Origin: Candidatus Omnitrophota bacterium
GTDB taxonomy: Bacteria; Omnitrophota; Gorgyraeia; Gygaellales; Profunditerraquicolaceae
Assembly: GCA_016208765.1 (NCBI GenBank)
Contig: JACQXK010000009.1
Span: 118,255-182,254 of the forward strand
DNA: 64,000 bases
Direction: 5' to 3'
Shown here: in pieces, positions 9,078 through 28,018 of the stretch
Layout of the letters: every line of letters begins with the position of its first letter
How positions within the stretch are numbered: the stretch's first letter is position 1
Made by a program: the position numbers and the translations under genes
The notes under the pieces: model-generated
Database searches by the model: none
What the model was told of the DNA's origin: nothing
Seen by the model: the letters and a program-made list of their open reading frames with translations, nothing else

Positions 9078-9401
9078 ATGTGTAGAGATATTAAAAGAAA
9101 GAGCTTTATATTAAAGACCTTTGCGGTCTTGTGCTTGGTTCTCGGATTTTCAATGGCGGTGGCACCTTTTGTCTTTGCGGAAATAAGCACCACCCAGGAG
9201 CAACAGGTAGTAAGCGACTTCGCCACGTTTATCATCAACATACTCACCGGACCTGTGTCAAAAATCCTGGGGGCAATATTGTTGATTGGCGGCGTGTTTG
9301 CGCTCTTAAACGGAAAGCAGGGAGTGGCTATAGCCTGCGGTTTTGGGTTCATGATTCTTATGTTTATACCCAAGATTCTGGAAGGATTGTTTAAGCAGTA
9401 A
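9078..9401 (+). CDS. traA: Conjugative propilin (TraA/VirB2/TrbC family)
   Basis: 107 aa; long leader with a signal-peptide-like region, then two hydrophobic helices (ILGAILLIGGVFALL, IACGFGFMILMFIP). Strong AGGAGGG RBS. Sits in the traA position ahead of traL. Confidence 0.55.
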   Translation: MCRDIKRKSFILKTFAVLCLVLGFSMAVAPFVFAEISTTQEQQVVSDFATFIINILTGPVSKILGAILLIGGVFALLNGKQGVAIACGFGFMILMFIPKILEGLFKQ

Positions 9402-9688
9402 TGAGAAAATGCCTGCGCACTATTGATAAACCGCTGCTGCTCTTCGGGCTTGAGCCTGAAGACGTGGGGATACTGGCTTTGGCCTGCGGCTCGATGATTT
9501 TATTCTTTGATACCTTTTACGCAGGCCTGGTATTCTTTGGGGGCTGGATGTTTTTAAGGTTAATAAAGCAGGGCAAGCCCCAGGGTTACATTACACACAT
9601 GTTTTATAAGTATGGGATTCGGATAAAAGGCTTGATTGCCCCGCCAAAAAAAGTTAAAATATATTCAGTTTTTAGGAAAGAGGATTAA
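9401..9688 (+). CDS. traL: TraL (VirB3-like) pilus assembly protein
   Basis: 95 aa. Alignable by eye to F TraL (FGLEPEDVGILALACG versus F LGLPLDEVIPAAICIG; RLIKQGK versus RKLKKGR). Confidence 0.55.
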   Translation: MRKCLRTIDKPLLLFGLEPEDVGILALACGSMILFFDTFYAGLVFFGGWMFLRLIKQGKPQGYITHMFYKYGIRIKGLIAPPKKVKIYSVFRKED

Positions 9689-9690
9689 CT

Positions 9691-9882
9691 ATGCAGATGC
9701 AAAATTTTACAATACCAGGATTATTATTGGTTGTCTCAATCGTTGTCCTTTATTTCCTGCCGACATTGATTGCGTTTTTAAGGAACCATAAAAATAAGCT
9801 GGCGGTATTTTTACTAAACCTGCTTTTAGGTTGGACAGGATTGGGATGGGTGGTATCACTTGTCTGGTCGGTAATGAAGTAA
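9691..9882 (+). CDS. Small membrane protein of the superinfection-immunity family (Imm_superinfect-like)
   Basis: 63 aa, two TM helices, family-typical motif YFLPTLIAFLRNHKNK...LLNLLLGWTGLGWVVSLVWS. Confidence 0.5.
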   Translation: MQMQNFTIPGLLLVVSIVVLYFLPTLIAFLRNHKNKLAVFLLNLLLGWTGLGWVVSLVWSVMK

Positions 9883-10020: not shown

Positions 10021-10064
10021 AGAAAAATAGGGCTGGTTTTCTGAAAGCAATTTCAGAGAGCCAG
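10021..10064 (+). terminator. Intrinsic terminator / attenuator hairpin in the traE leader
   Basis: GGCTGG ... CCAGCC outer stem with nested CTGAAA/TTTCAG inner stem, followed by TTTTTTATTT. Lies between the promoter at 9922 and the traE start at 10080. Confidence 0.5.
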
Positions 10065-10079
10065 CCTTTTTTATTTGCC

Positions 10080-10697
10080 ATGAATGATTTTAAACCAGAG
10101 AAATTAAAACGCACCGGTTTCGTTGAGAAATGGGCTCATGCAGAACAGACTTCTGCATTTTTGGGGATCAGCCTTTACGCTATTATTATTTTTTGTATAG
10201 CCTTATTGCTTACGTTATTTAAGGTATCCACAAAGCCCCAGGCCATTTATTACATCCCAAGCGCACAAGAAGCTGGCATTGCTTATCCTAACCGCATAGA
10301 TAAAACAATGATCTGCGGTTTTGCTTCAAACTGGCTCTTAAACCGCAATAACTTCACTCCCGCCACAGTCAAGGACACTTATCAAAGAGCAATGCGTTAT
10401 ATGGCGCCTGGGCTACTTTCCAGGACAAAGGCAAGCCTGGAAGATGAAATATTAAGAGTTACGCGCGACAATATCTCTTCGTTATTTTCCCTAAGCAAAG
10501 AGCCGGAATTAGAAGACTCAGGTACGGATTTTAAGGTAACGCTCACTGGAGAAAAGATTATTTTCATGGGCAAAGAAAAACTTGATGATCGTATTCTTCG
10601 TTACACTATGACCTTGCAAAGAATTTCGCCTATTGAGACCAACCCTTACGGAATAGTGATAGCGGGAGTAAAACAGGAAGAGGTAGAGACACAATGA
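10080..10697 (+). CDS. traE: TraE (VirB8-like) inner-membrane pilus assembly protein
   Basis: 205 aa; single N-terminal TM helix. Segment RAMRYMAPGLLSRTKASLEDEILRVTRDN aligns with F TraE ALLQYIRPGAQNQMKVILAEEAKRIKNDN. Confidence 0.55.
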   Translation: MNDFKPEKLKRTGFVEKWAHAEQTSAFLGISLYAIIIFCIALLLTLFKVSTKPQAIYYIPSAQEAGIAYPNRIDKTMICGFASNWLLNRNNFTPATVKDTYQRAMRYMAPGLLSRTKASLEDEILRVTRDNISSLFSLSKEPELEDSGTDFKVTLTGEKIIFMGKEKLDDRILRYTMTLQRISPIETNPYGIVIAGVKQEEVETQ

Positions 10698-11416
10698 AAA
10701 TACTTAAAAAGTTATTTATTTTAATGCTTGTTTCTAGGTTGGTTCTTACGGGGCAAGTTAATGCTTCAAGTGCATCGGATTACAGCGATGAGATTACCTT
10801 AAGGTTAAAAGCAGGCATGATTACCGAAGCTGAGTTTTCGGAAAAAATCACCAATGTCACAAAAAGTGCGGCAAGCGACATGCTGCAGATTGAAACACTC
10901 GGAAATAGGATTTTTTTGCTGCCCAGAGAAAATTTAGAATCGCAACTATACGTAATCACCCAGGACAATGTTTCCTATTGCCTGCATTTAATCATGGATG
11001 AAGCACAAGCTCCTACCCGCATAAAAATTAAGAAGCCTTATCAGAAGATAAACGAAGAGCAGGCCAATGTCACGGCAAATACGGTTGAACTAATGAAAGC
11101 GCTTCTTACTGGCAGGCAACCGGCGGGTGCAGTCAGCTCCAGGCTGCATCCCCAAGAGATTTTTAATAACGGTAAATTCCGTATAGTTATAGATGAGGCT
11201 TATGAGTTTTCCAATAATGTAAAAGCCCTTGTTCTGACTTTTGAGAACTTGGATCATAAACCGCTTGTCGTACCTATTGAGCATATAGAGCTTCCGGGTT
11301 TATTGGCCATAAGCATAGACAGTCAGATATTGGAGGCAAAGCCTTATGGCACTAACAAGAAGCATTCAAGTTACGCTACAAAGGCTTACATGATTGTGGA
11401 AGGGTTAACACAATGA
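10694..11416 (+). CDS. traK: TraK (VirB9/secretin-like periplasmic ring component)
   Basis: 240 aa with signal peptide (MKILKKLFILMLVSRLVLTGQVNASS). Size and position (after traE, before traB) match F TraK. Confidence 0.45.
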   Translation: MKILKKLFILMLVSRLVLTGQVNASSASDYSDEITLRLKAGMITEAEFSEKITNVTKSAASDMLQIETLGNRIFLLPRENLESQLYVITQDNVSYCLHLIMDEAQAPTRIKIKKPYQKINEEQANVTANTVELMKALLTGRQPAGAVSSRLHPQEIFNNGKFRIVIDEAYEFSNNVKALVLTFENLDHKPLVVPIEHIELPGLLAISIDSQILEAKPYGTNKKHSSYATKAYMIVEGLTQ

Positions 11417-12648
11417 AAATATCGCTTGATAAGATTCCCGGTTTTAATAAGCTTCCGCCGGTGCTGCGTAATAATCCGAAATTAGCTTTCGTGATTATTT
11501 CCTGTCTGGTTGTGGTTCTAATATTTTTGCTGTTTGCAGGAAGCAAGGAAACCCAAAAAATACAGAAAAGCCTGGGGTTAGTTGAAGCTAAGAAGGGTGC
11601 CGGCTTGACGGAGGATAAAGATGTCGGCGTTTTAGTGGGCTCTGTGGATACAAAGTCTTATGTTTTGCGCATTGAAAAGCAATATTACGACATCAGCTCG
11701 AAGTTTGATTCTTTGAATGAGCGCATCGGAGCACTTGAAAAGAACGATCAGGATTTACGTAAAAACCTAGGCGATGTAAGCAGCATTGTCATGGCCTTTG
11801 ATAAGAAAGTAACGGATAAATTTGAGCAGAAAACCGGCTTAACAAAGAAAAGCCTTGAGCGGGGGCAGAGCATCGGTTCTATTGAAGAGGCGTTAATTAA
11901 TCCTTTTTTCATGTCGCAACCAGCCGGCAAGACAATTAATCTGGAAATGGCTAAGGTTGGCGAAATAAGAAATGAGGAAAAAGCTCCCGGGAAGAATTAC
12001 GTTTATCTTCCTTTGGGCAGCTTTGTCAAATGTACTCTTCTTACCGGCGTGTATGCCCCTGCTAATGAAAGCAACCCCTTGCCGGTATTAATCAGCGTGG
12101 ATGAAGCTTTTTACGGCCCGAATAACACAAGGATTCCCTTAAAAGGTGCCTTTGCCATCGGCAAGGCAGTGGGCGATGTGGTCTCGAAAAGGGCAATCAT
12201 TCAGATTGTAAGTTTTTCCGTAGTATTGCCAAATGGACAAGTTTTTGAGCATGAGGCGAATTTGGGGTACTTGGCTGATAGCGACGGACGTTTAGGCATA
12301 CAGGGTGAGTTAATTTACAACACAGGAAAACAATTAGGCCTGAATTTTTTATCCGGATTCCTTGCAGGAGGCTCTGAGGCGCTCTCCCAGGCAGAGACCT
12401 CAACCGTTACCGGCGCATATGGACAAACTTCAAGGAATGTTACCGGCAACACCGGACGTTATTCCATGTTTTCAGGCCTGGCTAATAGCGCGCAAGGGAT
12501 GTCAAGTTACTATCAAAAACAGTTAGAAGCCATGATCCCTGCGGTAAAAATTGAGGCAGGAAAAAAAGCTGTTTTAGTTGTCCAGAAAGGAGTGCAAATT
12601 GAAGGCCTTGAAATTTCCAGTGATAATTTTGCTTCTCTTGATGACTAG
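11413..12648 (+). CDS. traB: TraB (VirB10-like)
   Basis: 411 aa; N-terminal TM helix (LAFVIISCLVVVLIFLLFAG), coiled-coil linker, beta-rich C-terminal domain. Position is between traK and traV. Confidence 0.5.
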   Translation: MKISLDKIPGFNKLPPVLRNNPKLAFVIISCLVVVLIFLLFAGSKETQKIQKSLGLVEAKKGAGLTEDKDVGVLVGSVDTKSYVLRIEKQYYDISSKFDSLNERIGALEKNDQDLRKNLGDVSSIVMAFDKKVTDKFEQKTGLTKKSLERGQSIGSIEEALINPFFMSQPAGKTINLEMAKVGEIRNEEKAPGKNYVYLPLGSFVKCTLLTGVYAPANESNPLPVLISVDEAFYGPNNTRIPLKGAFAIGKAVGDVVSKRAIIQIVSFSVVLPNGQVFEHEANLGYLADSDGRLGIQGELIYNTGKQLGLNFLSGFLAGGSEALSQAETSTVTGAYGQTSRNVTGNTGRYSMFSGLANSAQGMSSYYQKQLEAMIPAVKIEAGKKAVLVVQKGVQIEGLEISSDNFASLDD

Positions 12649-13000
12649 CGGATGTGTTGCGTCTAAAGGAATAGTGAAGGACAGCCCAAGCAGGGTAATG
12701 GATGTATACCTGGAGGCTGTTTCTGGCGGAAGGATAGATGCAGTTAACTATATAAAGGAAAACTTAAAAATTGATAAAGCCTTTGGCTATGTAAAGCCCT
12801 ATGTTCCGGTGGTTGAGCCTGCGGATGTGCGCATGGTATGGCTGCCGGCGCATAAGTCAAAATATTCATCTCAAGTTTTAGTCAGCGGCCATTGGGTTTA
12901 TGTCATGGTGAAAGATTCACGCTGGTTTATTGATACACAAGCTAAAGGTGAAGCAAAAATTCCCTTGATAGTCCCTTATAAGGAAGTTAACAAAAAATGA
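12578..13000 (+). CDS. traV: TraV-like outer-membrane lipoprotein
   Basis: Lipobox LLLLMTSGC. An in-frame TTG at 12608 would give a clean lipoprotein signal peptide and reduce overlap with traB. Sits in the traV position before traC. Confidence 0.4.
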   Translation: MSRKECKLKALKFPVIILLLLMTSGCVASKGIVKDSPSRVMDVYLEAVSGGRIDAVNYIKENLKIDKAFGYVKPYVPVVEPADVRMVWLPAHKSKYSSQVLVSGHWVYVMVKDSRWFIDTQAKGEAKIPLIVPYKEVNKK

Positions 13001-15534
13001 TGAAGACGCAAAGCATAGAGTCTTTTCTTGAAGAAGGCAAATCCTTTACAGAGCTTCTGCCTTATTATGCTCATGAAAACGGTTTTTTTGTGCTTAAAGA
13101 CGGAAGCCTGGGTCAGGTTTGGGAAGTTTCCTTAATCGAGAGCGAGACAAAATCCGTTGCTCATTTAGAGCAGTTAGCTCAGATGATAGAAGGAATCATA
13201 ATCCGGCTTCCCGAAGACCTGGTCAGTTGCCAGTTTATTCTTATGTGTGATGAAGATATTGACGATAAGCTCCAGAGTTATACGGATTTTTCCAAGGGTT
13301 TTGACAACGAGATAATAAGAGAGGCCGGTAAGGCTAAGCTTGGGCACCTTAATTTGGGAAAGCACGGTTTTTTTGAGCAGCATACAGGGCGCTATTCCTC
13401 AAAGAGAATACGCTGCTTTTTTACTTTGCGCTATTTTCCTTCCTGGTCGCATACAAATTTTTCCGATAAGCTTCAGTTCTATTTTACCGGGAGAAACAGG
13501 ATAAAAGAAAAACTCTCAGATGATTTCTTGGTAAATTGCCAGAGTATAACCCGGTTTTCGGATGTGGTGGAAGGCGTATTTAAGGCCTGTGAAATCAGGT
13601 ACTCTAAACTTTGCGAAACAGGTCTGCACCGGCTGCTTTATAAACTGCTGAATCCTAAGCGCGCGGATACCTTGCCTATGCCGGTATTTAGGGAATACGA
13701 GTCTCTTATAGACCAGCTTTTATATAACTCGCCTCGTGCCTCGTTAGAAGGTTTTGAATTTGAAGATAGATATTTTAAGGTGGTTACTTTAAAAGAGTTG
13801 CCTCTGTCTACGGAAACAGGCATGTTCACCGCAGAACTTATCAGGGGAACGCGTTTTTCCATGCTGGATTTATTGAAAGATTTTATCATGGTGATTAACT
13901 TTTACATACCAAAACAGGAGGAGGCAATAAGAAGGATAAAGATGCAAAAGGCCTTTGCCTTTATGCAGCGCTCTACATACTTCGGTGACAAGTCAATTGA
14001 GGCCTCTGAGAAAAAAGAGGAACTTGATTCTGTGATCAGAGAGACATTCAGTTCAGGCCACAAAATAATCTATCCAAGGATTCATTTTATTGTCTCGGAA
14101 AGCTCGCATGACAAATGCGAAACTTCCATTGCCAATATCTTAAATGTGTTATCCCGCATGGGCTGCGAGGGTCTAAAAGAAGAAATTATCGGCGCATCAT
14201 TATTTTTATCCTGCCTGCCTTTGTGTTTTGACCACGCTTACGAGAGATTTATTAAGCGCACCCGGCGCATGATTTCTTCTAACTTGAGCGACATGCTTCC
14301 TTTATACGGTTCAGTCAAAGGAACTCAAACCCCTGCGCAGGTGTATCTCAATAGAAGAGGGGAATTGGTTAATTGGGATTTCTTTGATTCCAATACCAAT
14401 CCGCATGCGATTATTATCGGGGCATCAGGGGCGGGGAAAAGTTTTTTTGTGAATGATTTTATCCTGCAGAATGCCCGGCTGGACGCACACTTTTTTGTTT
14501 TAGATAAGGGAGATTCTTATAAAAAACTCTGCCAGATCTTAGGCGGCCAGTACATCAGGTTTGAACTGAATGATCCGGTGACCATAAATCCTTTCTTAAA
14601 AGAACCGGATGCAGAACATTTGGCATTTTTGGTCACGGTATTATCCGAGATGTGCTCAGGGGGCGATGAAAGAGAGCGTCTTTTCAGGGAGCAGGAAGGC
14701 GTTCTGCAAAAGGCGATTCTCTCTGCTTACCAGGAGAGAAAGAATAAAGATGAGGAAGTAACGTTATCGGATGTCGTCGAGAAACTCAAAAGCCATGCCT
14801 GTAACAGGAGGCTGGGATTAGGCGAGAGCATTGGCTTAAAGCTTGCCCTAAAACTTACGCCTTTTACCAGGGAAGGTTCATACGGCAGGTTCTTTGACGG
14901 CAGGAATCAATTTAACCTGGGTACCAAGTTTACCGTATTTGAGTTGGGAAATTTAAGCGCGCATTCCGATTTGCAGCTTGTAGTTTTATTAAACATTATG
15001 TACTTCATTACCAATTTTGTCTCATCAAGCGAAATGAAGCCTAAGCGTAAATTCCTGCTTATAGATGAAGCCTGGAGCCTGCTGCGTTTAAAGAACACCG
15101 CTGAATTTATCACCAATTCCTTTAAGACTTACAGGAAATACCATTGCTCAGCTGTGGCCATAACACAGGAGATAGTTGACCTCGTGGGTGGAGACTGCGG
15201 TATTGCCATCCAGGCAAATGCCGCAAACAAGGTATTTTTAAAACAGGAGCCAAATGTTGTCGATTCCCTAAAAACCTTTGCCTCTTTGACGGATAAGGAA
15301 ATAGAGCTCTTGAAATCTGTTGAGACACAGAAGGGTAAGTTTTCAGAGGCTCTGATTATTTCTGATACTTCCCGTGGCGTAATACGTCTGGTGCCTGATC
15401 CGTTTCTTTACTGGGTAGCTACGAGTGATGCAAAGGATAATGAATATCTGGAGAATAAAGTACAGCAATTTGAAGGTAAATATTTAGAAGCGCTTGAAGC
15501 TTGCGCAAAGGAGCGTCCTTATGGGATACATTAA
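12997..15534 (+). CDS. traC: TraC / VirB4-family conjugative ATPase
   Basis: 845 aa; Walker A IIIGASGAGKSFF; Walker B FLLIDEAWSLL. F-TraC-like size. Confidence 0.8.
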   Translation: MMKTQSIESFLEEGKSFTELLPYYAHENGFFVLKDGSLGQVWEVSLIESETKSVAHLEQLAQMIEGIIIRLPEDLVSCQFILMCDEDIDDKLQSYTDFSKGFDNEIIREAGKAKLGHLNLGKHGFFEQHTGRYSSKRIRCFFTLRYFPSWSHTNFSDKLQFYFTGRNRIKEKLSDDFLVNCQSITRFSDVVEGVFKACEIRYSKLCETGLHRLLYKLLNPKRADTLPMPVFREYESLIDQLLYNSPRASLEGFEFEDRYFKVVTLKELPLSTETGMFTAELIRGTRFSMLDLLKDFIMVINFYIPKQEEAIRRIKMQKAFAFMQRSTYFGDKSIEASEKKEELDSVIRETFSSGHKIIYPRIHFIVSESSHDKCETSIANILNVLSRMGCEGLKEEIIGASLFLSCLPLCFDHAYERFIKRTRRMISSNLSDMLPLYGSVKGTQTPAQVYLNRRGELVNWDFFDSNTNPHAIIIGASGAGKSFFVNDFILQNARLDAHFFVLDKGDSYKKLCQILGGQYIRFELNDPVTINPFLKEPDAEHLAFLVTVLSEMCSGGDERERLFREQEGVLQKAILSAYQERKNKDEEVTLSDVVEKLKSHACNRRLGLGESIGLKLALKLTPFTREGSYGRFFDGRNQFNLGTKFTVFELGNLSAHSDLQLVVLLNIMYFITNFVSSSEMKPKRKFLLIDEAWSLLRLKNTAEFITNSFKTYRKYHCSAVAITQEIVDLVGGDCGIAIQANAANKVFLKQEPNVVDSLKTFASLTDKEIELLKSVETQKGKFSEALIISDTSRGVIRLVPDPFLYWVATSDAKDNEYLENKVQQFEGKYLEALEACAKERPYGIH

Positions 15535-15973
15535 AAAGTTTTTAGCGGTTAGTTTTATTCTGTTCTTAGTAGGCTGCTCTACTTTTGGCAAAAAAGACAA
15601 AGTTCTTGAAGCAGGGTATCGCACCGGGGTAAGGGAAAATATGCAGGATTTTGCTCAAAGCTTCTATGGAAATGATTTTCCTTACTTTTATTGGGAAAGC
15701 CCGGTTGTGCAAAACGTTAAAATTCCTGCACACATTGAAAACGGCGTATTTATACCTGAGCATAATGAGCCGGTAGTGATTGATCCGGCCCAGTGGAGGA
15801 ATAAACCAAGTTATCCTATAAATTGTCCCAAACCAGAGAAGAAATCAAACAAAAAAGAAGGAGGAGAGCCGTATGCGTTTAATTACCTTAATTTTAGTGT
15901 CAGGGATATTACTGTCTTGCCCGAATCTTTTACTTGCGTTAAACCAGGAGCAAAAAACAAAGATAATCGCTAG
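15494..15973 (+). CDS. Lipoprotein (possible pilotin for the downstream secretin)
   Basis: Lipobox LFLVGCS. The likely true start is the Met at 15521. Directly precedes the secretin gene. Confidence 0.3.
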   Translation: MKLAQRSVLMGYIKKFLAVSFILFLVGCSTFGKKDKVLEAGYRTGVRENMQDFAQSFYGNDFPYFYWESPVVQNVKIPAHIENGVFIPEHNEPVVIDPAQWRNKPSYPINCPKPEKKSNKKEGGEPYAFNYLNFSVRDITVLPESFTCVKPGAKNKDNR

Positions 15974-18828: not shown

Positions 18829-18900
18829 CGGTTAAAATCCAGAGTGAGCCAGCCGGATTATTCAGGATCCGCTGGTTCACTCTCTAAACTTTAGAAACCC

Positions 18901-19386: not shown

Positions 19387-19394
19387 AAAGGAGG

Positions 19395-20031: not shown

Positions 20032-21672
20032 ATGCCTGTAGAAGAGATAGGACACATACTTTTAAATTCTAAGGTGATCACTAAAGAGCAGCTTGAATTT
20101 GCCCTGATGATCCAGAGGAATATCAGCCCTGCTCAAAGATTAGGAAGAATCCTTAAGTATTATAACTTTGCAAGCGAAGAGGCCGTGGCCAGGGCTTTAG
20201 CTAAGCAGGTCGGCTGGAGGTATTTTAACAAAAAATACGTGGTTAATCTTCCGATGGTAGAAAAAATAGGCCTGGAGTTTCTTGCAGATAGGGTTTTCCT
20301 ACCTGTGGAGACTGAAAAAGGGCTGTGTTTTGTTTTTGCCTATCCTTTTGATATCGAGGCAACCGATCTTCTTGCAAGCGCAGGCCTGCAGAACAAAGAG
20401 TTTTACATCGGAAGCGAAAACGCAATCCGGCATCACCTGGAGATGTTTAAAAATAAGAAAAAAAGAGAAGAGATTGACAAAAGAATCAACATGCTTAAAG
20501 AAACAGGCGTTGTCGGCGATGAGCTTAAAGAGTTGCTGGATGAGCTTTTAGATGATGCAATAATTCATAACGCTACTGATATCCATATTGAGCCGGAAGA
20601 AAAAATAAGCACTATACGTTTTAGGATTGACGGAATTCTCTATTTTAAGTTCTGCATTCCCTTGGAAGTGCACAACAACCTCATTAATGTGGTTTTCAGC
20701 AGGGCAGAGATTACCGTGAGCGATTTTTACAGGTTTCATGATGCCAGATTCCAGCATGTCTATTCAAATCAGCCTGTGGATATAAGGGTATCCTGTATTC
20801 CTTCAATATTCGGTCCGGCATTAGTCTTGCGGCTTCTAGGCGTAAATAAAACCTTAATTACTTTGGAAAACTTAGGATTCCATAAAACGCACTTTGACAC
20901 CATAAGCCGCATAACCAAGAAGCCCCACGGCATTATCATTATCACCGGGCCCACCGGAAGCGGTAAGACTACGACACTTTATGCTATCCTCAGCCAACTT
21001 AAATCCCTTTCTACAAAAGTAATTACCATCGAGGATCCTGTTGAGATTAAAATGCCGCTTATAAACCAGGTACAGATTAATGAAAAACAGGGCATTACTT
21101 TTGCTCATGCCACGAGGGCATTTTTACGGCATGACCCGAATATAATCTTGATCGGCGAAATAAGAGATCACGATACAGCCCAAGAGGCGATACGTGCTTC
21201 CATTACCGGACACAGAGTATTATCCACGTTGCACACGAACACGGCAGCGGACTCAGTTTACCGGCTGCATGATTTGGGAATAGAGCTTAGACATATCGCA
21301 AACAGCATTCTTTGCGTTATCTCGCAAAGGCTGATCAGAAAGCTCTGTCCATTCTGCAAAAAAAGAGCCATTGTTAAAAAAGAGGAACTGCCGGAATTCT
21401 TTATGAAGTATCTTAAGGAGGATGAAAGCGAAATCCGCGTATATAAGAGTAAAGGATGTCTTCACTGCCAGGCGGGTTTCCTCGGTCGTACTGTCATTGC
21501 CGAGGTTTTAGAGTTTAGCGATGATGTCCGGGATTTAGTCAACTTGGGAAAACTGGATCTAGTCAGGCACAAAAATAAAGAAGAAGGCTTCACCAACCTC
21601 CAGCAGGATGCGGTAAGACTTGTACGCGAAGGCGTTACTTCTCTTGAAGAGGCAATGAGGGTAGCAGGATAA
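20032..21672 (+). CDS. Type II/IV secretion / type IV pilus assembly ATPase (GspE/PilB family)
   Basis: Walker A ITGPTGSGKTTT; Asp box; Walker B ILIGEIRD; His box; tetracysteine motif CPFC...CLHC. Confidence 0.85.
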   Translation: MPVEEIGHILLNSKVITKEQLEFALMIQRNISPAQRLGRILKYYNFASEEAVARALAKQVGWRYFNKKYVVNLPMVEKIGLEFLADRVFLPVETEKGLCFVFAYPFDIEATDLLASAGLQNKEFYIGSENAIRHHLEMFKNKKKREEIDKRINMLKETGVVGDELKELLDELLDDAIIHNATDIHIEPEEKISTIRFRIDGILYFKFCIPLEVHNNLINVVFSRAEITVSDFYRFHDARFQHVYSNQPVDIRVSCIPSIFGPALVLRLLGVNKTLITLENLGFHKTHFDTISRITKKPHGIIIITGPTGSGKTTTLYAILSQLKSLSTKVITIEDPVEIKMPLINQVQINEKQGITFAHATRAFLRHDPNIILIGEIRDHDTAQEAIRASITGHRVLSTLHTNTAADSVYRLHDLGIELRHIANSILCVISQRLIRKLCPFCKKRAIVKKEELPEFFMKYLKEDESEIRVYKSKGCLHCQAGFLGRTVIAEVLEFSDDVRDLVNLGKLDLVRHKNKEEGFTNLQQDAVRLVREGVTSLEEAMRVAG

Positions 21673-22878
21673 ATGTATTATAAATTCAGCGTCTTATCAG
21701 AAACAGGAAACGAAATAAACGGTATTGAGCAGGGTTCCTATTCAGAAATAAAGAACAGCTTAAGGCAGAAGAACTATTACATTTTGTCTTTGGAAGCGGA
21801 TTTTTTTAAGTCAATAAGGTTTGCCTTGGAGAAAAAAACAATTAAGGCGCAAACGCTGGCAGTATTTTTTGAGGATTTGGTGAACATGCTAAAAACCGGC
21901 ATTGCCATGAATGAGGCGGTTAGCGCCTTACGGGAGTCGTCTGTTGAGCCCGTCCTGACTAAGGCTTTATCCGGCATTGAGTATGATCTTGTTAACGGTT
22001 TTTCTTTGACTAATGCCTTTAAAGAAACAAAAGTCTTTCCATGGCTGGTTTTAAATATGCTTAAAGTCGGCGAGAAATCCGGCTCTCTTGAGCAGGTATT
22101 CGAGGATTTAGCCAAGTATTATTCCCGGGAGGCGGAATTCCTGAGTAGTTTAAAGAGCGCGGTAATTTATCCAATAATTGTATTCTGCATGCTGGTCGGG
22201 ATAATGTTCTATGTTTCCTTTAAGGTGTTACCTCATTTAGAGGCGCTCTTGCCCATAAGGGGCAATGCTTATTTTTCAACCCGACTGCTTTTATCTTTGA
22301 GCCATTTCCTGAAAGACTTCTGGTTTGTCTGTTTATTGTTTCCGGTTGTATTAGCGTGTATCTATTCAAGGTTTAAGAAAAGCTCGGTTGAAAGAATTGC
22401 ATCATTCTATTACAAGCTTCCCCTGGTAGGTTCTGTGGCTAAAGACGCAGCTATTTCTAACCTTTTTTCTAAGCTCGCGGTTCTCCAAAGAAACGGCATC
22501 AATATCGCTGACGCGCTTTCCTTAATCGAAGAGACTACTTCTTATCAATTTTTAGCTAAGAAAATACAGAAGCTTAATGATCTTATTGTAAGCGGGCTTA
22601 GCTTCTGGCAGGCCCTGCAAAAAGACCCATTTTTCCCAAAGCTTGTTTATACAACTGTCAGAAAAGGCGAGGAGATGGGCTCGCTTGATGAGTATCTGCA
22701 AAGCCTTTCCAAGTATTACTTTGATAAAGTCTCAAGGAGCATACGCGTAATTTTAGGTTTTATCCAACCGGCACTTTTAGTTTTCTGCGCAGCAGTTTTA
22801 TTGTTTGTTGTTTCGGCATTCATCATGCCGGTTTACAGCAATCTTTCAAACATTGCAGGCGGCAATGTTAAGTTTTAG
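21673..22878 (+). CDS. Type II secretion / type IV pilus platform protein (GspF/PilC family)
   Basis: 401 aa; duplicated T2SF domain layout with three TM regions. Translationally coupled to the ATPase (TAAATG overlap). Confidence 0.8.
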   Translation: MYYKFSVLSETGNEINGIEQGSYSEIKNSLRQKNYYILSLEADFFKSIRFALEKKTIKAQTLAVFFEDLVNMLKTGIAMNEAVSALRESSVEPVLTKALSGIEYDLVNGFSLTNAFKETKVFPWLVLNMLKVGEKSGSLEQVFEDLAKYYSREAEFLSSLKSAVIYPIIVFCMLVGIMFYVSFKVLPHLEALLPIRGNAYFSTRLLLSLSHFLKDFWFVCLLFPVVLACIYSRFKKSSVERIASFYYKLPLVGSVAKDAAISNLFSKLAVLQRNGINIADALSLIEETTSYQFLAKKIQKLNDLIVSGLSFWQALQKDPFFPKLVYTTVRKGEEMGSLDEYLQSLSKYYFDKVSRSIRVILGFIQPALLVFCAAVLLFVVSAFIMPVYSNLSNIAGGNVKF

Positions 22879-22894
22879 AGGAGGTGAGGAAAAG

Positions 22895-23320
22895 ATGAGG
22901 AATAGGGGAGGTTTTACGCTGATCGAACTGGTGCTGGTCATAAGCATTATCGCGCTTTTAATCATGGCGGTGGGATTAACTAGCGGCGTACGGGAAAATG
23001 CCAAGGTGCATTCGGCTTCCGAATCAGTCAAGGCATTAAGGACAGCTGCGGAAAGCTACATCGCAGCCGGTAACATGACCTACACCGGGATAACGATTCC
23101 TGGCTTACAGACATTAGGGTACTTGCCTGCCAGTTTTTCTGCAACAGGCTCAAACCCTTGGGGCGGGAATTATGTCATAGCCCCGAATACCGACACTAAT
23201 AAGGTCGATATCTCGCTTACCGGTGTAAGCAGTTCTGCGGCAACAAGGCTTTCGGCTTTGTTTGCTAACAGTGCAGCAGCAACTAGCTATGCATCCGAAA
23301 CATGGACAATAACGTTTTAG
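22895..23320 (+). CDS. Prepilin / pseudopilin (type IV pilin N-methylation site)
   Basis: Short basic leader MRNRG then FTLIELVLVISIIALL (class III signal, Glu+5). GAGGAGGTGAGG RBS before the ATG at 22895. The track ORF starts further upstream at 22805. Confidence 0.7.
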   Translation: MRNRGGFTLIELVLVISIIALLIMAVGLTSGVRENAKVHSASESVKALRTAAESYIAAGNMTYTGITIPGLQTLGYLPASFSATGSNPWGGNYVIAPNTDTNKVDISLTGVSSSAATRLSALFANSAAATSYASETWTITF

Positions 23321-23772
23321 CAAAGCGTGGTTTTAGTTTGGCTGAGCTGAGCCTTGTGCTGATGTTAGTTAACGTATTCATTGCCGTATCTTTTTACTCT
23401 GCGGCAAAGATACGGCAGGCTGCTTCAGCACAAAGGGTAATTGAGGAGCTGGATGCAATAGCTGCAGCAAGTACCAGATATTACAGCGAGCATGGGGCGT
23501 GGCCGGTGAATTTAGCCGACCTGCGCCCCAGCTATCTGGTGCAGCAGTCTAGCGACCTTAATCCCTTTGGCAATGCCTATACAATTACCTCTAATGCTTC
23601 AAGTTTTTCAATATCTACGCTTTTGCCAAAAAACCTAGTTACCAATAAAAGCTACGGCAGCGAGGTTGTGGTTGTAAATCAGGGTAATAATGATCTGGTT
23701 AGCATCACTAAATCACCAGAATCAATAAACTGGAAGTTAAAATATGAGAAGAAGTACATCCATAAACAATAA
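23302..23772 (+). CDS. Prepilin / minor pilin
   Basis: Leader MDNNVLAKRG then FSLAELSLVLMLV. Confidence 0.65.
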   Translation: MDNNVLAKRGFSLAELSLVLMLVNVFIAVSFYSAAKIRQAASAQRVIEELDAIAAASTRYYSEHGAWPVNLADLRPSYLVQQSSDLNPFGNAYTITSNASSFSISTLLPKNLVTNKSYGSEVVVVNQGNNDLVSITKSPESINWKLKYEKKYIHKQ

Positions 23773-24577
23773 AAAGGGTTTTTCTTTAATTGAGCTTTGT
23801 ATAGCGCTTGGGGTTTTGGTTATCCTTACCTCATCCATTACCCCTGTTTTTATCAAGAGAATACAGGTTAAGGCAGGGGAAAAGACTGCGCTGGAGATGT
23901 CGGTAATACAGCAGGCAGCGCTTTCGTATTACGCAGCTAATAATGCTTGGCCTGCGAGTATCCAAGCTTTGCAAAATGCAGGATACCTTAATCCTTCTTG
24001 GTCTGCTAATAATCCCTGGCAGAATGCTTATACTATTTCCTCAACTATCAGCGCTTTTACGGTCTCAACCACTGTGCCTCAGGAGTGGACAAATCTTGTA
24101 GCAAGGGACCTGCCCACTAGTTCTGTATTGGGAACTATCGTCGGCAGTGTTGTGCCTGCGCCTGGCAGCGCTCAAAATGATTCGCTTCCCATAGGTTCAA
24201 TTGTTATCTGGTCAGGTGCTGTTGCTTCCATACCTACTGGTTGGCAGCTTTGCGACGGAACTAACGGCACGCCTGATCTTCGGGATAAGTTTGTGGTAGG
24301 GGCAAGGCAGGATTCAGGCGGTGTCTCAATGACGAATGTTTCCGGTTCATTAACCAAGATTGGAGGGGAAGCAAAACATACATTAACTATTGCCGAGATG
24401 CCTGCACATACGCATTCTTATCGCTGGTGGCCGGGATGGTATTTTTCAGGTAGCTCTGAATACGGCGCAAAAGGCGGCCCTGACGATAACCATCAGACCG
24501 GAAGCGTAGGAGGCGGACAGCCGCATAACATACTGCCGCCTTATTATGCCCTATGCTTTATCATGAAAATCTCTTAA
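23744..24577 (+). CDS. Prepilin with C-terminal phage tail-collar (T4 gp36-like / MdpB-like) domain, putative tip adhesin
   Basis: Leader MRRSTSINNKKG then FSLIELCIALGVLVIL. C-terminal IGSIVIWSGAVASIPTGWQLCDGTNGTPDLRDKFVVGA ... EMPAHTHSY ... NILPPYYALCFIMKI matches the phage tail-collar consensus (GWxxCDG ... PDLRxxF). Confidence 0.65.
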   Translation: MRRSTSINNKKGFSLIELCIALGVLVILTSSITPVFIKRIQVKAGEKTALEMSVIQQAALSYYAANNAWPASIQALQNAGYLNPSWSANNPWQNAYTISSTISAFTVSTTVPQEWTNLVARDLPTSSVLGTIVGSVVPAPGSAQNDSLPIGSIVIWSGAVASIPTGWQLCDGTNGTPDLRDKFVVGARQDSGGVSMTNVSGSLTKIGGEAKHTLTIAEMPAHTHSYRWWPGWYFSGSSEYGAKGGPDDNHQTGSVGGGQPHNILPPYYALCFIMKIS

Positions 24578-24583
24578 AGACAA

Positions 24584-25492
24584 ATGGTTTCAAGATTTAG
24601 GAAGGCTTTTATTGTTATTTTGTTTTTGATCTTTTCTTTAGGAAAAGTTTTTGCTCTTGAGACAACCGATATCTTGGGGATGGTAAACTTAAACTGCATA
24701 GATTTAAAGGTAATCGGCGTATGCGTAAATCCCATTGGTATTCCCGGTATTGTGATTATGTATTGGGAACCCGCCTTGCTTATTGAAACCGTCAAGCGCC
24801 CGGGCGACACTGTAATTAATTCGTTAAAACCGGTTATCGCTGATTTTGCTTCACAGGGAACTAAAAATCTTATGTCCGGGCTTACAGGATTGCCTGTAGT
24901 AATATCAAGCGGATCTAGTTCTAGCAAGCTGACTGGAACAAATTTGCAGTTTAATGAAGCACACGTGTATGAGTTTCCATTTAGGGATGAGATTATGTCT
25001 TTCATTGATATGCAGTGTCCGGATAAACTTCCTACAGGTTTATTTATCAAGTATCTTTCGGAATTGGATTCTGCGGAATGGCGTATAGGCGCTATTGAGG
25101 CCTTGCATCCGAAAAGTATTGCTTCAGCGGCAAGTGGTTTAACCTGCGCTGCAACAGGAGCATTCCTGGATGATCTGTGCATGGGTTTTTGGGGAGCAGC
25201 TTATCCAAGACGAGGTTTTGTTACGCACCAGAGCGAAGTAGTGGGGAGCGCAATAGCAGCAACTAGAGCAGTAAGCATTGCCTCACTTTTAGGCTCTACT
25301 TTTCATATCGTCTTGGAGACCACAGGTTTTATTCCTTCCTTTGATAGCGATAAGCTGGAGTTAATTTATCCAAATCCAAGCGGATGCATCAAAATAGGCC
25401 AGCATCCGGCAACCTGGGAATCCGGCAAATTGTCTTCATCCGGGAAATACCTTTGGGTATATTGGAGAAGAAGAATATGCTGTATTTATTAA
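24584..25492 (+). CDS. traU: TraU (F-type pilus assembly / DNA transfer protein)
   Basis: 302 aa; signal peptide. IMYWEPALLIETVKRPGDTVINS aligns with F TraU INYWEPMALTDVTRSPGCMVNLG. Multiple conserved Cys. Confidence 0.55.
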   Translation: MVSRFRKAFIVILFLIFSLGKVFALETTDILGMVNLNCIDLKVIGVCVNPIGIPGIVIMYWEPALLIETVKRPGDTVINSLKPVIADFASQGTKNLMSGLTGLPVVISSGSSSSKLTGTNLQFNEAHVYEFPFRDEIMSFIDMQCPDKLPTGLFIKYLSELDSAEWRIGAIEALHPKSIASAASGLTCAATGAFLDDLCMGFWGAAYPRRGFVTHQSEVVGSAIAATRAVSIASLLGSTFHIVLETTGFIPSFDSDKLELIYPNPSGCIKIGQHPATWESGKLSSSGKYLWVYWRRRICCIY

Positions 25493-26016
25493 GCGTAATT
25501 TTAAGCGTTTCTTTATTATTAAATCCGGCTTATGTAATAGCAGGATTTTTTGATGAGAAAGATGTCTCTATACAGCAAAGCGGTTGCAGTGAATGTCAAA
25601 GCCAAACACTTAACCTAAATCCGGATTTAAAAGAAAAAGTTGTAGTAATAGAAAAGAAGATTTCCAATAACCTCAATAAAAATACCAGTGGTAAAGAGAT
25701 CACCTTATTTATTGATCTTAGCGACAGCTATTTTGACCAGGCGGTTAACGTATTAGTCAAATTCAAAAATGACAATCCTGACTGGTTGGTTAAAGGCGTT
25801 ATTACTGGCAGCAAGAATAATTTAAAAGAAAAGTTACTTGCGAAACAGAAGTTTTTTGGCACCGGTATTGAATTCAGTATTGACCTGAGTGGCACCTTGT
25901 CAAAAGAGTTCGGTATCATTAAGACGCCGGTTTATTTGATTTCCTATAAAGGCAGCCAGCAGAAAATAACCGGGTTGTCTGATTTTAATGATTTTATATC
26001 GAGACTTAATAAATGA
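25477..26016 (+). CDS. Periplasmic F-type transfer protein, TrbC/TraW-like (putative)
   Basis: Signal peptide MLYLLSVILSVSLLLNPAYVIAG; size ~180 aa. Occupies the position after traU where trbC sits in F-like operons. The ATG at 25477 has a GGAGAAG RBS. Confidence 0.3.
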   Translation: MLYLLSVILSVSLLLNPAYVIAGFFDEKDVSIQQSGCSECQSQTLNLNPDLKEKVVVIEKKISNNLNKNTSGKEITLFIDLSDSYFDQAVNVLVKFKNDNPDWLVKGVITGSKNNLKEKLLAKQKFFGTGIEFSIDLSGTLSKEFGIIKTPVYLISYKGSQQKITGLSDFNDFISRLNK

Positions 26017-26741
26017 GAGCATTTATTCTTATGTTTATCCTTTTTTTATCGCACCTTGCTAATGCATCCGCAGAAAGTATCTTTCAGTATAAACGGATTG
26101 ATTTTTTCCGAGAAATAGAAACACAAATAGAACCAGTAACAGCACAAACTAATAATTCTTCCGAAGTTATTACAGAAGAATGGGCTGAACCAATAATTGC
26201 TCCTTCCGGCAAAGTAAATGTCTATGTACCGCCTAAAGAGGTGAGGAATTTCCTGGATAAGCCCGATCCGGATAACGCAAGGGCATACTTACAGTGGAAC
26301 TTAAAGAGGATTAAAAAATTCATCCTTGCGCAGGAATTGCTAAGAAAAGAAGCAAAGGAGCTTGAAGTGATTAAGGAAACGAAAAGCCTGCTTGAACCCG
26401 ATTCTCCAGCAGGATTTAGGGATTCTAGTAGCAATACAAAAGTTGATGTGAGTTATCTGTTCTATTTTATGCTAAAAGGTTGCCCTGTGTGTGAGAAAGA
26501 ATCCCAGGTGATAGAAGACGTCTATCTTAATCATCCAGAAATCAGAATCGAAGCCTTTGCCAAAGGCTTCTCTGACAGGGAGCTAGAAAACTTTAAGTTT
26601 TCTGCCAAGCAAGATTCTGGCATGAGCAGCCTTTTTAAGGTTGAATCATATCCGGCTATTGCAATATTTAACAAAAAGAATAAAAGGTATTTTCTTTCGG
26701 GGTTTGTAGATAAAGAGAGGATACTTAAGCTGCTTAAATGA
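26013..26741 (+). CDS. traF: TraF/TrbB-like thioredoxin-fold protein (CxxC)
   Basis: 242 aa; signal peptide; CPVC redox motif in a thioredoxin-like C-terminal half. Confidence 0.45.
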   Translation: MRAFILMFILFLSHLANASAESIFQYKRIDFFREIETQIEPVTAQTNNSSEVITEEWAEPIIAPSGKVNVYVPPKEVRNFLDKPDPDNARAYLQWNLKRIKKFILAQELLRKEAKELEVIKETKSLLEPDSPAGFRDSSSNTKVDVSYLFYFMLKGCPVCEKESQVIEDVYLNHPEIRIEAFAKGFSDRELENFKFSAKQDSGMSSLFKVESYPAIAIFNKKNKRYFLSGFVDKERILKLLK

Positions 26742-28018
26742 AGAAAATCATTATTTCTTTAGCTTTAATTTCGCTATTAAGAGGTATAAGCTATGCTGAT
26801 ATTTTCTCTAAAGACGATACCACTAGCCCTTATACCATAGACAGCGCTATTTCCGAAGATAGGTCCGGCTTCTATTACCGGGGAGGTCTTGACTACCGGC
26901 CGACTGTTCCGGTTGATGAGCCGGGAGTAGGTTACTCTATCTTAAGTGGTTCAAAAGGATGCAGCGGTTTTGACCTTGCCTCAAGCTTTAACAGCGTTCT
27001 CTCAGAACAGATCCTGGCGGATTATATGAAAGGTATATCCAGCGAAGCAATGGCAGCTGCACCGATGTTATTATTAGAGTATGTTTCGCCGACATTGGCA
27101 GACATCATCAAACACTTTAATGCTATGACTAATATGCGCCTAGGTCTAAGGTATGCCCAATGCGAAGACATCGAGAAGGCAGCCGGGGAATACATGGATA
27201 AGCTAAGGAAAAAGAGTGAGAGCGAGTGCGTTAAAGAAAAAGTAGCAACCGGCCTTGATATTGACTCAGCGCTTAAAGCCTGCAAAGAGGGGAAAGATCC
27301 ATTCGCCTTCCTGAAGAATGCTGAAGGCGTTCCCTTGGCACAGGGAGGAAAAATCGATGTACTTTCAGATATCTTTAAGAAGATAAATATCCCGGGCGAG
27401 AGAAAAGATTTTGTCAAATCAGTGGTAGGCGAGACCACCATCACCTCATCACAGATTGAGAACAACAAAGGAGAAAAATCCATCTATAAGGTAAACGATG
27501 AGTTTAGGTCTGAAACTTCCGATAAGTTTCTCTCTCTTTTCAATGAATACCTGAATTCAAAAACTGTATCCAGCGATTCATTAAAAGGCCTGTCCTTACA
27601 CAATAATCCGGTGACAGAGGAACAGATTAGAGATATAGCTTTGATGCCTAAGGCAAAACAATATATAGCGATTTCCAAAATTTCCTCTGACATAGCTTAT
27701 TTTAAGACTGTCTCCCAATACAGGCAGGCTATGGATGATTTATTAGAGGCAATGCGCGCGCCTGGCTTAGATGATGTGCAAAGAGGCGTGCTTGAGCGGG
27801 ATTATAATTACCTGAAAGAGAAACTGGAAAGATTCAAAGAGGAAAGAGAGATTTATAAAGATTACAACGAAGCCGTAGCCGGTATCTTATCGGAATCAGA
27901 AAAAGAAAAGCTCAATACCATTATAAATGATGATGGAACAAGCTCGTATTTCAACGATACTACTGAAACGCAGGATAAAAAAGAGATGTACCTGTCTGCT
28001 ACGGAAGAAAAGGAGTAA
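26738..28018 (+). CDS. traH: TraH (F-type pilus assembly)
   Basis: 426 aa; signal peptide. GxGC.GxD...SF segment (SGSKGCSGFDLASSF) resembles F TraH (NAGCGGIDAFLGSF). Coiled-coil C-terminus. Confidence 0.45.
   Translation: MKKIIISLALISLLRGISYADIFSKDDTTSPYTIDSAISEDRSGFYYRGGLDYRPTVPVDEPGVGYSILSGSKGCSGFDLASSFNSVLSEQILADYMKGISSEAMAAAPMLLLEYVSPTLADIIKHFNAMTNMRLGLRYAQCEDIEKAAGEYMDKLRKKSESECVKEKVATGLDIDSALKACKEGKDPFAFLKNAEGVPLAQGGKIDVLSDIFKKINIPGERKDFVKSVVGETTITSSQIENNKGEKSIYKVNDEFRSETSDKFLSLFNEYLNSKTVSSDSLKGLSLHNNPVTEEQIRDIALMPKAKQYIAISKISSDIAYFKTVSQYRQAMDDLLEAMRAPGLDDVQRGVLERDYNYLKEKLERFKEEREIYKDYNEAVAGILSESEKEKLNTIINDDGTSSYFNDTTETQDKKEMYLSATEEKE

Follow-up and report, generated by a model that had tools for sequence, protein, structure and literature searches.

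A type IV pilus-like machine nested in the F-like conjugation operon of a putative integrative and conjugative element of Candidatus Omnitrophota

Conjugative elements that capture their mating partner with a second machine, a type IV pilus, are known to us only from a few proteobacterial families, namely the IncI plasmids and the integrative and conjugative elements (ICEs) PAPI-1 and SPI-7. In R64 (IncI1) and TP114 (IncI2) the pilus serves partner binding beside a type IV secretion system (T4SS) of the MPF_I class of mating-pair formation (MPF). The PilV adhesins of TP114 set the specificity of conjugation (PMC9045228, in part), and the conjugative type IVb pilus of PAPI-1 recognizes the lipopolysaccharide of the recipient (PMC5297154, in part). 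Here we describe a locus of Candidatus Omnitrophota in which a complete pilus-like gene set lies inside the transfer operon of an F-like T4SS. The window, the whole stretch of DNA that was analyzed, comprises 64,000 nucleotides (positions 118,255 to 182,254 of contig JACQXK010000009.1, GenBank assembly GCA_016208765.1) of a chromosomal contig of 220,517 bp from a metagenome-assembled genome (MAG); all coordinates below are window positions on the plus strand unless a minus sign or another locus is given, and related loci carry numbers beginning with L. We read the region 9078-28018 as the mating-pair-formation core of an ICE of about 30 kb that has recruited a pilus for partner capture, and we put the probability of this reading at roughly 0.6.

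The physical arrangement of the genes is unusually compact. From 9078 to 28018 the plus-strand open reading frames (ORFs) run with nearly no intergenic space, and both junctions between tra and pil genes, like most of the block, show 4-nt overlaps or gaps of at most 13 nt. TraC overlaps the lipoprotein gene that opens the pilus set, and the stop codon of the collar pilin that closes it lies 6 nt upstream of TraU. The only strong plus-strand terminator is a hairpin with an 18-bp stem and a T run at 10029-10068, between the Imm and TraE genes, which separates a short pilin-TraL-Imm unit from a long TraE-to-TraH unit; the interior of the latter holds nothing comparable, its weak terminator-like sites occurring at the frequency found in shuffled sequence. 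Judged from these signals, the pilus genes are predicted to sit inside the TraE-to-TraH transcription unit as parts of one operon. All of the ORFs named in the original prediction, which had been made from the sequence alone and had proposed an F-type operon split by a pilus machine, exist on the plus strand where it had placed them.

The genes upstream of the pilus set had been predicted to follow the order traA-traL-(imm)-traE-traK-traB-traV-traC, and Pfam and NCBIfam models recover that order, with weak matches for the pilin, TraL, TraK and TraV. The first is a VirB2/TrbC-like conjugative pilin (9078-9401; weak Pfam TrbC match, 3.2e-3) with a signal peptide and two hydrophobic helices, 83-87% identical in other loci. 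It is followed by the VirB3-like TraL (9401-9688; Pfam TraL 5.5e-5, 23.8 bits against a cutoff of 24.4; TIGR02762 8.1e-6), a small membrane protein of the Imm_superinfect family (9691-9882; PF14373 1.7e-20) that occupies the same position in all loci covering that site, and the VirB8-like TraE (10080-10697; Pfam TraE 3.3e-9). Next come a TraK/VirB9-like outer-membrane core protein (10694-11416; CagX 4.6e-4 and TraK_Ftype 4.3e-3, both weak), the position of whose gene is kept across loci, the VirB10-like TraB (11413-12648; TrbI 2.5e-21; F-type TraB 2.2e-23), a TraV-like lipoprotein analogous to VirB7 (12578-13000; weak Pfam TraV match, 3e-3; lipobox-like MTSGC) and the F-type VirB4 ATPase TraC (12997-15534; P-loop_TraG 1.4e-46; TraC_F_IV, PF11130, 6.8e-25; TIGR02746 2.3e-116), whose database record reads 'TraC family protein' (MBI4706874.1) from a Candidatus Omnitrophota MAG. 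Downstream of the pilus genes the F-type genes resume with TraU (24584-25492; Pfam TraU 1.2e-32, 114 bits), a TraF/TrbB-like periplasmic thioredoxin with a CPVC motif (26013-26741; TraF 6.9e-6, 26.5 bits; Thioredoxin_2 2.5e-5) and TraH (26738-28018; Pfam TraH 2.1e-12, 47.5 bits; TIGR03755 1.1e-12), much as had been proposed; TraU and TraH also match the ICE families TIGR03756 and TIGR03755, respectively. The trbC/traW-like gene that the same proposal placed among them did not fare as well. The ORF at 25384-26016 encodes a secreted protein with a CSEC motif and, by alignment, possibly a thioredoxin-like C-terminus; it matches no profile hidden Markov model (HMM) and is a positional candidate for the slot that TrbC/TraW holds in F.

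The class of the T4SS is best judged from TraC. Against 14 VirB4-type models it scores highest with TIGR02746 (389.6 bits, under the curated cutoff of 567), followed by the generic VirB4 model (214 bits), the ICE/MPF_G TraC model PFL_4706 (170 bits), the Bacteroidetes type (114 bits) and TrbE (at most 75 bits); it carries the TraC_F_IV N-terminal domain, and its best plasmid matches are F-type traC genes at about 26% identity. Among the other core genes, TraE and TraB are clear, TraL falls 0.6 bits short, and TraK and TraV match weakly (about 1e-3), with an order and sizes that fit. The Pfam scores of TraC_F_IV, TraU, TraH, TraF and TraE all exceed the gathering scores. As all NCBIfam scores of the tra genes remain under their curated cutoffs, the system is a divergent F-like one and not canonical. 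The ranking of VirB4 models, together with the accessory TraU, TraH and TraF and with TraE and the N-terminal domain of TraG (TraG_N), identifies it at the level of sequence models as a divergent MPF_F-like T4SS, and the predicted MPF_F assignment thus stands, though at scores below the NCBIfam cutoffs. The Pfam scan covered nearly all plus-strand ORFs of 90 aa or more, together with selected minus-strand ORFs of the window. Among these scanned ORFs, neither TraN, TraW nor VirB11 was matched and TraG is represented by its N-terminal domain only, so the predicted lack of TraN and of the TraG C-terminal domain is borne out; the TraG_N gene lies upstream, at 4396-5766. The MPF_F systems of F, SXT/R391 and IncA/C have in common with this locus TraG_N, the lack of VirB11 (here as far as the scanned ORFs go) and the order traA-like, traL, traE, traK, traB, traV, traC, then traU, then traF/trbB and traH, but they differ from it in possessing TraN, TraW and the TraG C-terminal domain, in having a MOB_F or MOB_H relaxase where we find a putative MOB_C-like one, and in having no type IV pilus machine between traC and traU.

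Within the pilus set the secretin, ATPase and platform were recovered by strong HMM matches, the PilM/N component by its predicted fold and the prepilins by class III signals, as the proposed insertion of a pilus machine required. The first gene encodes a small lipoprotein with an LVGC lipobox (15494-15973), recognized from its sequence in the absence of any HMM match; it lies directly 3' of TraC in relatives except L007, where an insertion of about 1.1 kb intervenes, and is a candidate pilotin of PilL-like or TcpQ-like type. The secretin (15873-17411; Secretin 5.9e-40) carries an LLSC lipobox, an STN domain and N-domains, and scores best with MshL (232.9 bits, cutoff 250.2), then with the PilN-type IVB secretin (181.9 bits). 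The next four ORFs, within 17408-20030, match no Pfam or NCBIfam model. For the first of them, orf394 (17408-18592), a PDB profile search of the family gave no match; its AlphaFold model, built with 29 homologues (pLDDT 78), consists of an N-terminal cytoplasmic actin-like domain, a long transmembrane and coiled helix and a C-terminal periplasmic alpha-beta domain, and Foldseek aligns the actin-like domain with PilM (5eou, 2e-8; 3jc8; 2ych) and with GspL/EpsL (4pht, 1yf5). On the strength of this model, orf394 is assigned as a GspL-like fusion of PilM and PilN. A 74-aa ORF without family match (18604-18828), whose position is kept across loci, precedes a conserved bitopic protein of 161 aa (18901-19386) with an N-terminal transmembrane segment and a periplasmic domain of about 130 aa, and a secreted protein of 211 aa (19395-20030) with a signal peptide, a coiled coil and a beta-rich C-terminus. 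From size, topology and position these would be PilO/GspM-like and PilP-like, respectively; hhalign detected no similarity to PilO2 and PilP of a Salmonella plasmid, and a PDB profile search with the 211-aa family gave chance-level matches only. Of the predicted PilM/N-, PilO- and PilP-like proteins, therefore, the fused PilM-N is backed by a fold and the other two by topology.

The motor and the pilins are more readily recognized. The PilB/GspE/MshE-type ATPase (20032-21672; T2SSE 8.2e-107) has an N-terminus that matches MshEN (24.9 bits, cutoff 23.1) and the NF053729 cyclic di-GMP (c-di-GMP) motif (41.1 bits, cutoff 38), which suggests that it binds c-di-GMP and that pilus assembly may be under its control. 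It is followed by the PilC/GspF platform (21673-22878; T2SSF 1.1e-49, two repeats) and by three prepilins with the class III signal G|F(T/S)L(I/A)E, leaders of 6-12 residues and Phe at +1. The major prepilin (22805-23320; N_methyl 5.7e-7; PilS N-terminal domain 24.6 bits, cutoff 22) likely starts at 22892 with the short leader MRNRGG|FTLIE, and gene callers give 141 aa in relatives; the minor prepilin (23302-23772; G|FSLAE) was called from its sequence and weak GspG/GspH matches. The third (23744-24577; G|FSLIE; N_methyl; Collar 9.6e-4) is fused to a C-terminal domain resembling phage tail-collar and tail-fiber proteins, and Foldseek matches its model to the tail fiber of phage Pa223 (9nxk, 7.8e-5) and a tail-collar protein (6ov6), in addition to pilin folds. 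In 31 homologues the collar framework is kept while both the sequence and the length of an internal stretch are hypervariable, the pattern expected of a receptor-binding tip adhesin, and the modeled protein is therefore a candidate tip adhesin. Taken together, the pilus appears from its sequences to be a mosaic, in which the lipoprotein secretin that comes first, the fused PilM-N and the PilS-domain pilin recall type IVb pili of the R64/PAPI-1 kind, and the short leaders, the MshEN-bearing ATPase and the MshL-best secretin recall MSHA and type IVa pili.

The original prediction named R64 as the closest parallel, which holds for the lipoprotein secretin and the gene order. R64 (by description) and TP114 share with this locus the succession of lipoprotein, lipoprotein secretin, large bitopic protein, small protein, ATPase, platform, major pilin and adhesin pilin, as well as a major pilin that matches the PilS domain and an adhesin pilin with a variable C-terminus (PMC9045228, in part). 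They differ in that their T4SS is MPF_I and not F-like, that their pil genes form a separate region and are not part of the tra operon, and that the Omnitrophota pilins have short IVa-like leaders, the ATPase an MshE-like c-di-GMP domain and the element no recognizable prepilin peptidase or transglycosylase. The features of an R64-type IVb system, a long leader, a peptidase of its own and a PilV diversified by a shufflon, were thus not found: no recombinase gene or inverted repeats lie near the adhesin gene, and adhesin variation occurs between elements, in the tail-collar domain, unlike the R64 shufflon. We consider the PAPI-1/SPI-7 ICEs to be at least as close. The PAPI-1/SPI-7/ICEclc family (MPF_G, with type IVb genes pilL-pilV) likewise joins an ICE and a T4SS distantly related to F to a type IV pilus, whose PilV-type adhesin recognizes the recipient surface (PMC5297154, in part). 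The family differs in the class of its TraC (the Omnitrophota protein scoring 389.6 bits as F-type, below that model's cutoff, and 170 bits as PFL_4706/MPF_G), in host phylum, in relaxase type and in pilin class. To our knowledge, the pil cluster of these ICEs is a separate block and is not nested between traC and traU. The MSHA pilus of Vibrio (MshE/MshL) resembles the present one in its secretin, the MshEN N-terminus of the ATPase and the short pilin leaders, and differs in gene order and accessory set, in that no equivalents of MshM, MshN, MshH and MshF occur here, and in that the Omnitrophota genes are embedded in a conjugation operon.

Two replicons typed as MPF_F, the Salmonella IncFII plasmid pCFSAN024579, with a separate type IVb cluster, and pTHEAM01, also bear type IV pilus clusters, though not nested in this way; a Desulfosarcina plasmid has a compact F-like operon without pilus genes. 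Of these, pTHEAM01 (NC_014917.1; L022, L024, L025) of Thermovibrio ammonificans HB-1 (Aquificota), typed as MPF_F by MOB-suite, is comparable in content, as TraC, TraK, VirB10, TraU, a thioredoxin and a coupling protein share the replicon with a secretin, two ATPases of the type II secretion system (T2SS) and type IV pilus family, a platform and pseudopilins, and its pilus cluster abuts traK and traB. Its genes, however, form several divergently oriented, scattered blocks and not one operon, and the few matching proteins are 23-32% identical. GGDEF and EAL genes lie beside its coupling protein gene. We found no published characterization of pTHEAM01, which, coming from a cultured bacterium, could be an experimentally tractable analogue.

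The nested arrangement is widely conserved. Twelve contigs from MAGs of Candidatus Omnitrophota, some of which bear the label Planctomycetales, carry TraC relatives of 84-93% identity, and one more, L014, is at 48%. Every contig that is long enough shows the same gene order, which extends from TraG_N to TraU and in L016-L019 as far as TraH; L002-L013 and L016-L019 do not differ in it, nor does the divergent L014 between TraC and TraU. Independent assemblies hold this 27-gene order in common, and the 27 backbone ORFs of the window are tightly coupled and intact throughout, with 75-94% identity to other copies and no frameshift or internal stop in any of them. Such an arrangement of tra and pil genes is far beyond chance. 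Misassembly, through which pil genes from a separate contig might have been joined to the tra genes, was considered and rejected: the TraC-lipoprotein-secretin and pilin-TraU junctions are both found again in 13 or more contigs that were assembled independently, extending to a TraC identity of 48%. Searches gave 153 TraU clusters and 195 PilM-N clusters, of which 120 each were listed, at 60-90% identity; none of the 120 PilM-N clusters listed carries a Pfam annotation, and one TraU match belongs to Ca. Velamenicoccus archaeovorus, the genome of which is complete. The element occurs in Omnitrophota from groundwater, peat and lake metagenomes. Several TraC contigs (84-91% identical to the window) belong to one MAG (L007, L008, L010, L011) and two others (L004 and L013) to another, so that there are either multiple copies per genome or strains mixed in the bins. 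In the Omnitrophota literature that we searched, pili and giant genes are mentioned, and neither this tra/pil operon nor any pilus machine inserted between traC and traU is described, an absence that is not proof of novelty.

The operon forms part of a sharply delimited block of about 30.3 kb. On its left, nucleotide homology to L002, L004 and L009 starts within about 20 nt of the start codon of TraG_N; on its right, homology to the window ends at 34,676-34,746, at most 70 nt past the stop codon of the DUF6876 gene (34261-34677), in 80 of 80 metagenome loci retrieved with that gene as anchor. The element accordingly spans about 4.39-34.73 kb of the window. Its left flanks are mutually unrelated, consisting of a 3' fragment of comM and a helix-turn-helix (HTH) gene in the window, of an unannotated 324-aa ORF in L009, and in L002 and L004 of a tyrosine integrase and a tRNA-like fragment (in L002, within 56-1156, the integrase gene comes first, then the tRNA-like fragment, then TraG_N). 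In one sub-lineage (L085, 17268-18911; also L086, L098 and L099) the region 3-7 kb past DUF6876 holds a large serine recombinase, together with a Rep_O-like gene of phage type and a gene of the HTH-cupin type. Cargo varies and sits at hot spots: methylases, helicase and restriction genes and an OLD-like nuclease between TraH and SpoVG, and in L018 and L019 a TacA-acetyltransferase (toxin-antitoxin) pair that separates TraU from the adhesin pilin; in L006 and L007 there are insertions at other places. In L104 the element occupies the same chromosomal site as in the window, and its proteins are 77-89% identical to those of the window, whereas the syntenic flank proteins are 25-75% identical, a contrast that agrees better with a horizontally moving element that prefers this site for integration than with vertical descent. 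A discrete block, varied contexts and variable cargo are therefore all in evidence, as expected of an ICE.

The conserved backbone includes genes for DNA processing, of which the coupling protein is clear, as is the T4SS, and the relaxase shows a weak relationship to MOB_C/Replic_Relax. The TraG_N protein (4396-5766; Pfam TraG_N 7.4e-10, above cutoff), a VirB6-like polytopic protein of 456 aa, is the first conserved gene product of the element. After it, a doubtful ORF of 90 codons (5767-6039) without family match contains a 21-nt inverted repeat (5773-5793 / 5842-5862) and one arm of a 162-nt repeat, and the region folds as single-stranded DNA with z = -3.6; this segment, with the inverted repeat at 5773-5862, is a candidate origin of transfer (oriT) or regulatory DNA. 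The next gene encodes a putative MOB_C-type relaxase (Replic_Relax, PD-(D/E)xK-like) of 257 aa (6036-6809; NCBIfam MobC_subf 1.4e-9). Its family is narrow, with 42 relatives among 1.84 billion representatives; 5 of 20 aligned members match Pfam Replic_Relax, and P142, D143 and E157 are kept in at least 90% of the members in the alignment, a pattern (PD...ExE...K) that we take to resemble the PD-(D/E)xK-type motif of MOB_C relaxases. These alignments are suggestive of a MOB_C-like relaxase. A type IV coupling protein of the TraD/VirD4 family (6793-9057; TraG-D_C 2.6e-10, T4SS-DNA_transf 1.6e-7, SXT_TraD 2.8e-26) leads into the operon.

Our preferred reading supposes that both machines are co-expressed from the shared transcription unit. 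The pilus would display the minor pilin with its tail-fiber-like receptor-binding domain, which would bind a surface structure of the partner and keep two very small cells together, after which the T4SS would transfer relaxase-bound single-stranded DNA. In this way the pilus would take over the partner recognition and mating-pair stabilization otherwise served by TraN and the TraG C-terminal domain, a replacement that the original prediction had raised and that we regard as plausible. The prepilins would presumably be processed by the prepilin peptidase of the host, c-di-GMP may gate pilus assembly through MshEN, and the Imm-like protein is a candidate for an entry-exclusion function.

Several observations weigh against this reading. 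The VirB2-like pilin, TraK and TraV were called from weak matches, position and topology. The relaxase-like protein reaches 37.7 bits with MobC_subf against a cutoff of 200 and itself has no Pfam match. Neither a prepilin peptidase nor a retraction ATPase PilT was recognized among the scanned ORFs of the window; the former, in agreement with the original prediction, was sought by Peptidase_A24 matches, and the only unassigned ORF of peptidase size, 28092-28958 (-), has no predicted transmembrane segment. The window copy shows no recognizable integrase or recombinase among the scanned ORFs and no terminal repeats of at least 10 bp between the two element ends; recombinases adjoin related copies, and the window copy may be immobile. 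The conserved backbone likewise contains no integrase, none of the 80 loci encodes a relative of the L002-type integrase in the 10 kb that follow DUF6876, and ARAGORN found no tRNA gene in the window or in nine loci. In L014, where TraE, TraK and TraB are missing upstream of TraC, the idea of an accessory adhesin of a complete T4SS fits poorly. Finally, a predatory or parasitic way of life is presumed for Omnitrophota, so that the cell targeted is not necessarily a recipient of the same species.

This last point leads to the most serious competing explanation, which we nevertheless consider unlikely, namely that the locus encodes an apparatus with which nano-sized, probably epibiotic Omnitrophota attach to host or prey cells of other species and deliver proteins or DNA to them or take up material, a determinant of lifestyle carried on a mobile island and not a device for the transfer of the island itself. 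Members of the phylum have been inferred to live as predators or parasites, with pili linked to symbiosis (PMC10066038), and a tip pilin with a phage-receptor-binding type of domain and a hypervariable insert would suit such a function, as would the prevalence of the system in the phylum, with what may be several copies per MAG, and the persistence of TraC-pilus-TraU in an ordinary chromosomal context in L014. This explanation does not, however, account for a coupling protein and a relaxase-like gene conserved in the backbone, nor for the sharp ends, variable flanks, defense cargo and adjoining recombinases that give the element a self-transmissible look; moreover, its proteins are much more similar between genomes than those encoded by flanking genes, and no candidate effector genes were seen.

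A related and less probable view is that the two machines are one unit characteristic of Omnitrophota, in which TraC and TraU work with the pilus to dock nano-sized cells and pass DNA or proteins, possibly across phyla. L014 is again the informative case, as its TraC-pilus-TraU-TraF set without upstream TraE, TraK and TraB hints at tighter coupling between the F-like part and the pilus. That locus (1-21941) comprises TraC, lipoprotein, secretin, PilM-N, PilO/P-like proteins, ATPase, platform, two pilins, TraU and TraF, and upstream of TraC it has ribonucleotide reductase, ferrochelatase, PPK2 and two minus-strand genes in place of TraL, TraE, TraK, TraB and TraV. If true, this view would make the unit a determinant of epibiotic lifestyle and of gene flow across lineages. 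We think it improbable as well that the window copy is a decaying or domesticated, immobilized island whose T4SS and pilus no longer serve transfer: the missing integrase and terminal repeats, the truncated comM and IS200 transposase at the left edge and an exact 45-nt duplication that brackets the Imm-to-TraH block would be expected of a remnant, but the full complement of intact, tightly coupled and well-conserved backbone ORFs, free of frameshifts and internal stops, would not. Least probable of all is a T2SS-like pseudopilus or DNA-uptake (competence) machine working independently of the T4SS to export an element factor or import DNA, for although the ATPase, platform and pilins score about equally with GspE, GspF and GspG models, PilM-N is fused as in GspL, no retraction ATPase was found, and T4SS islands in DNA release or uptake exist (the gonococcal genetic island and ComB; PMC4027160, in part), there are three pilins only, neither GspC nor a GspH-K set is present, the secretin most resembles the pilus secretins MshL and PilN, the PilS domain of the major pilin scores above its cutoff, and the large receptor-binding-type domain of the third pilin suits the surface-exposed tip of a fiber. 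An ICE core with a partner-capturing pilus thus remains our preferred reading.

The conserved right arm of the element (29340-34677) is a candidate leading region. It contains in order a SpoVG-like gene, a small ORF, a 195-aa ORF, a ThiF-type E1, a JAB peptidase, the inverted copy of the 162-nt repeat, two small ORFs and DUF6876, and this order is kept in many of the longer metagenome loci. A structured repeat of about 300 nt is present in two copies of 83-92% identity (29340-29681 and 33216-33518), which precede the SpoVG-like gene and ORF 33426-33791; as single-stranded DNA the first copy is predicted to form a long hairpin (-56.5 kcal/mol, z = -5.9), and the repeat may be a single-strand promoter of the conjugative leading region or a structured 5' untranslated region. 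No known RNA family (Rfam) matched in the window. The cassette at 29944-32668, made up of a 103-aa ORF (ubiquitin-like by eye), the 195-aa ORF, the ThiF-type E1 and the JAB peptidase (weak PRTRC_A match), resembles the bacterial ubiquitin-like conjugation cassettes of mobile elements and anti-phage systems. The arms of the 162-nt inverted repeat (5859-6020 / 32687-32848, the second just 3' of the JAB gene) are 94% identical, and the second recurs there in most longer metagenome loci, for example L027, L033, L060 and L104; the repeat probably functions as DNA or RNA and does not encode a protein. The exact 45-nt direct repeat lies at 9654-9698, where it covers the 3' end of traL, the ribosome-binding site and the first 8 nt of the Imm gene, and at 28057-28101, just past the traH stop codon and before a 10-codon ORF, thereby bracketing 18.4 kb, and may be a relic of duplication or recombination.

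Outside the element, the window starts with the housekeeping genes folC, mnmE and folE. At the left edge of the element stand an IS200-type Y1 transposase gene (3064-3639, -) and the C-terminal third of comM/yifB (3651-4115, -), which aligns to residues 347-496 of E. coli YifB. A simple insertion into comM is not supported, as the remaining two thirds are absent from the window and the right end adjoins a fatty-acid-synthase-like cluster. At or just past the right end lies a small HTH_17 (excisionase-family) gene (34875-35066; HTH_17 3.3e-16), with a nucleotide-level match in only two other loci. The right flank (35082-46623) encodes two FabF-like proteins, a dehydrogenase, an amine oxidase, a seven-transmembrane histidine kinase, several receiver proteins, an acyl carrier protein and an HTH-cupin protein; from 35 to 46.6 kb it is syntenic with L104 (11466-19000), and FabF-like genes also lie 3' of the element in L031 and L053. 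About 13 kb past the right end, an ORF of 4630 aa (47586-61478), one of the very long Omnitrophota proteins, has TPR repeats, coiled-coil regions and an M20-peptidase-like domain.

In summary, the element belongs to the known kind represented by R64/TP114 and PAPI-1, a conjugative element that carries a type IV pilus, and what is new is its nested F-like arrangement. Our findings extend the pilus strategy to an F-like system and to a candidate phylum without a cultured conjugation model, with pilus genes wired into the tra operon and an adhesin built from a phage tail-fiber domain. They also suggest how F-type systems can dispense with TraN and the TraG C-terminal domain, and the set of about 27 genes is tractable for heterologous reconstitution. 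If the partner were a host of another phylum, the system would bear directly on the interaction of ultra-small bacteria with their hosts. Given how common and well conserved the element is among Omnitrophota, it is likely to be one of the main routes by which genes move within the phylum.

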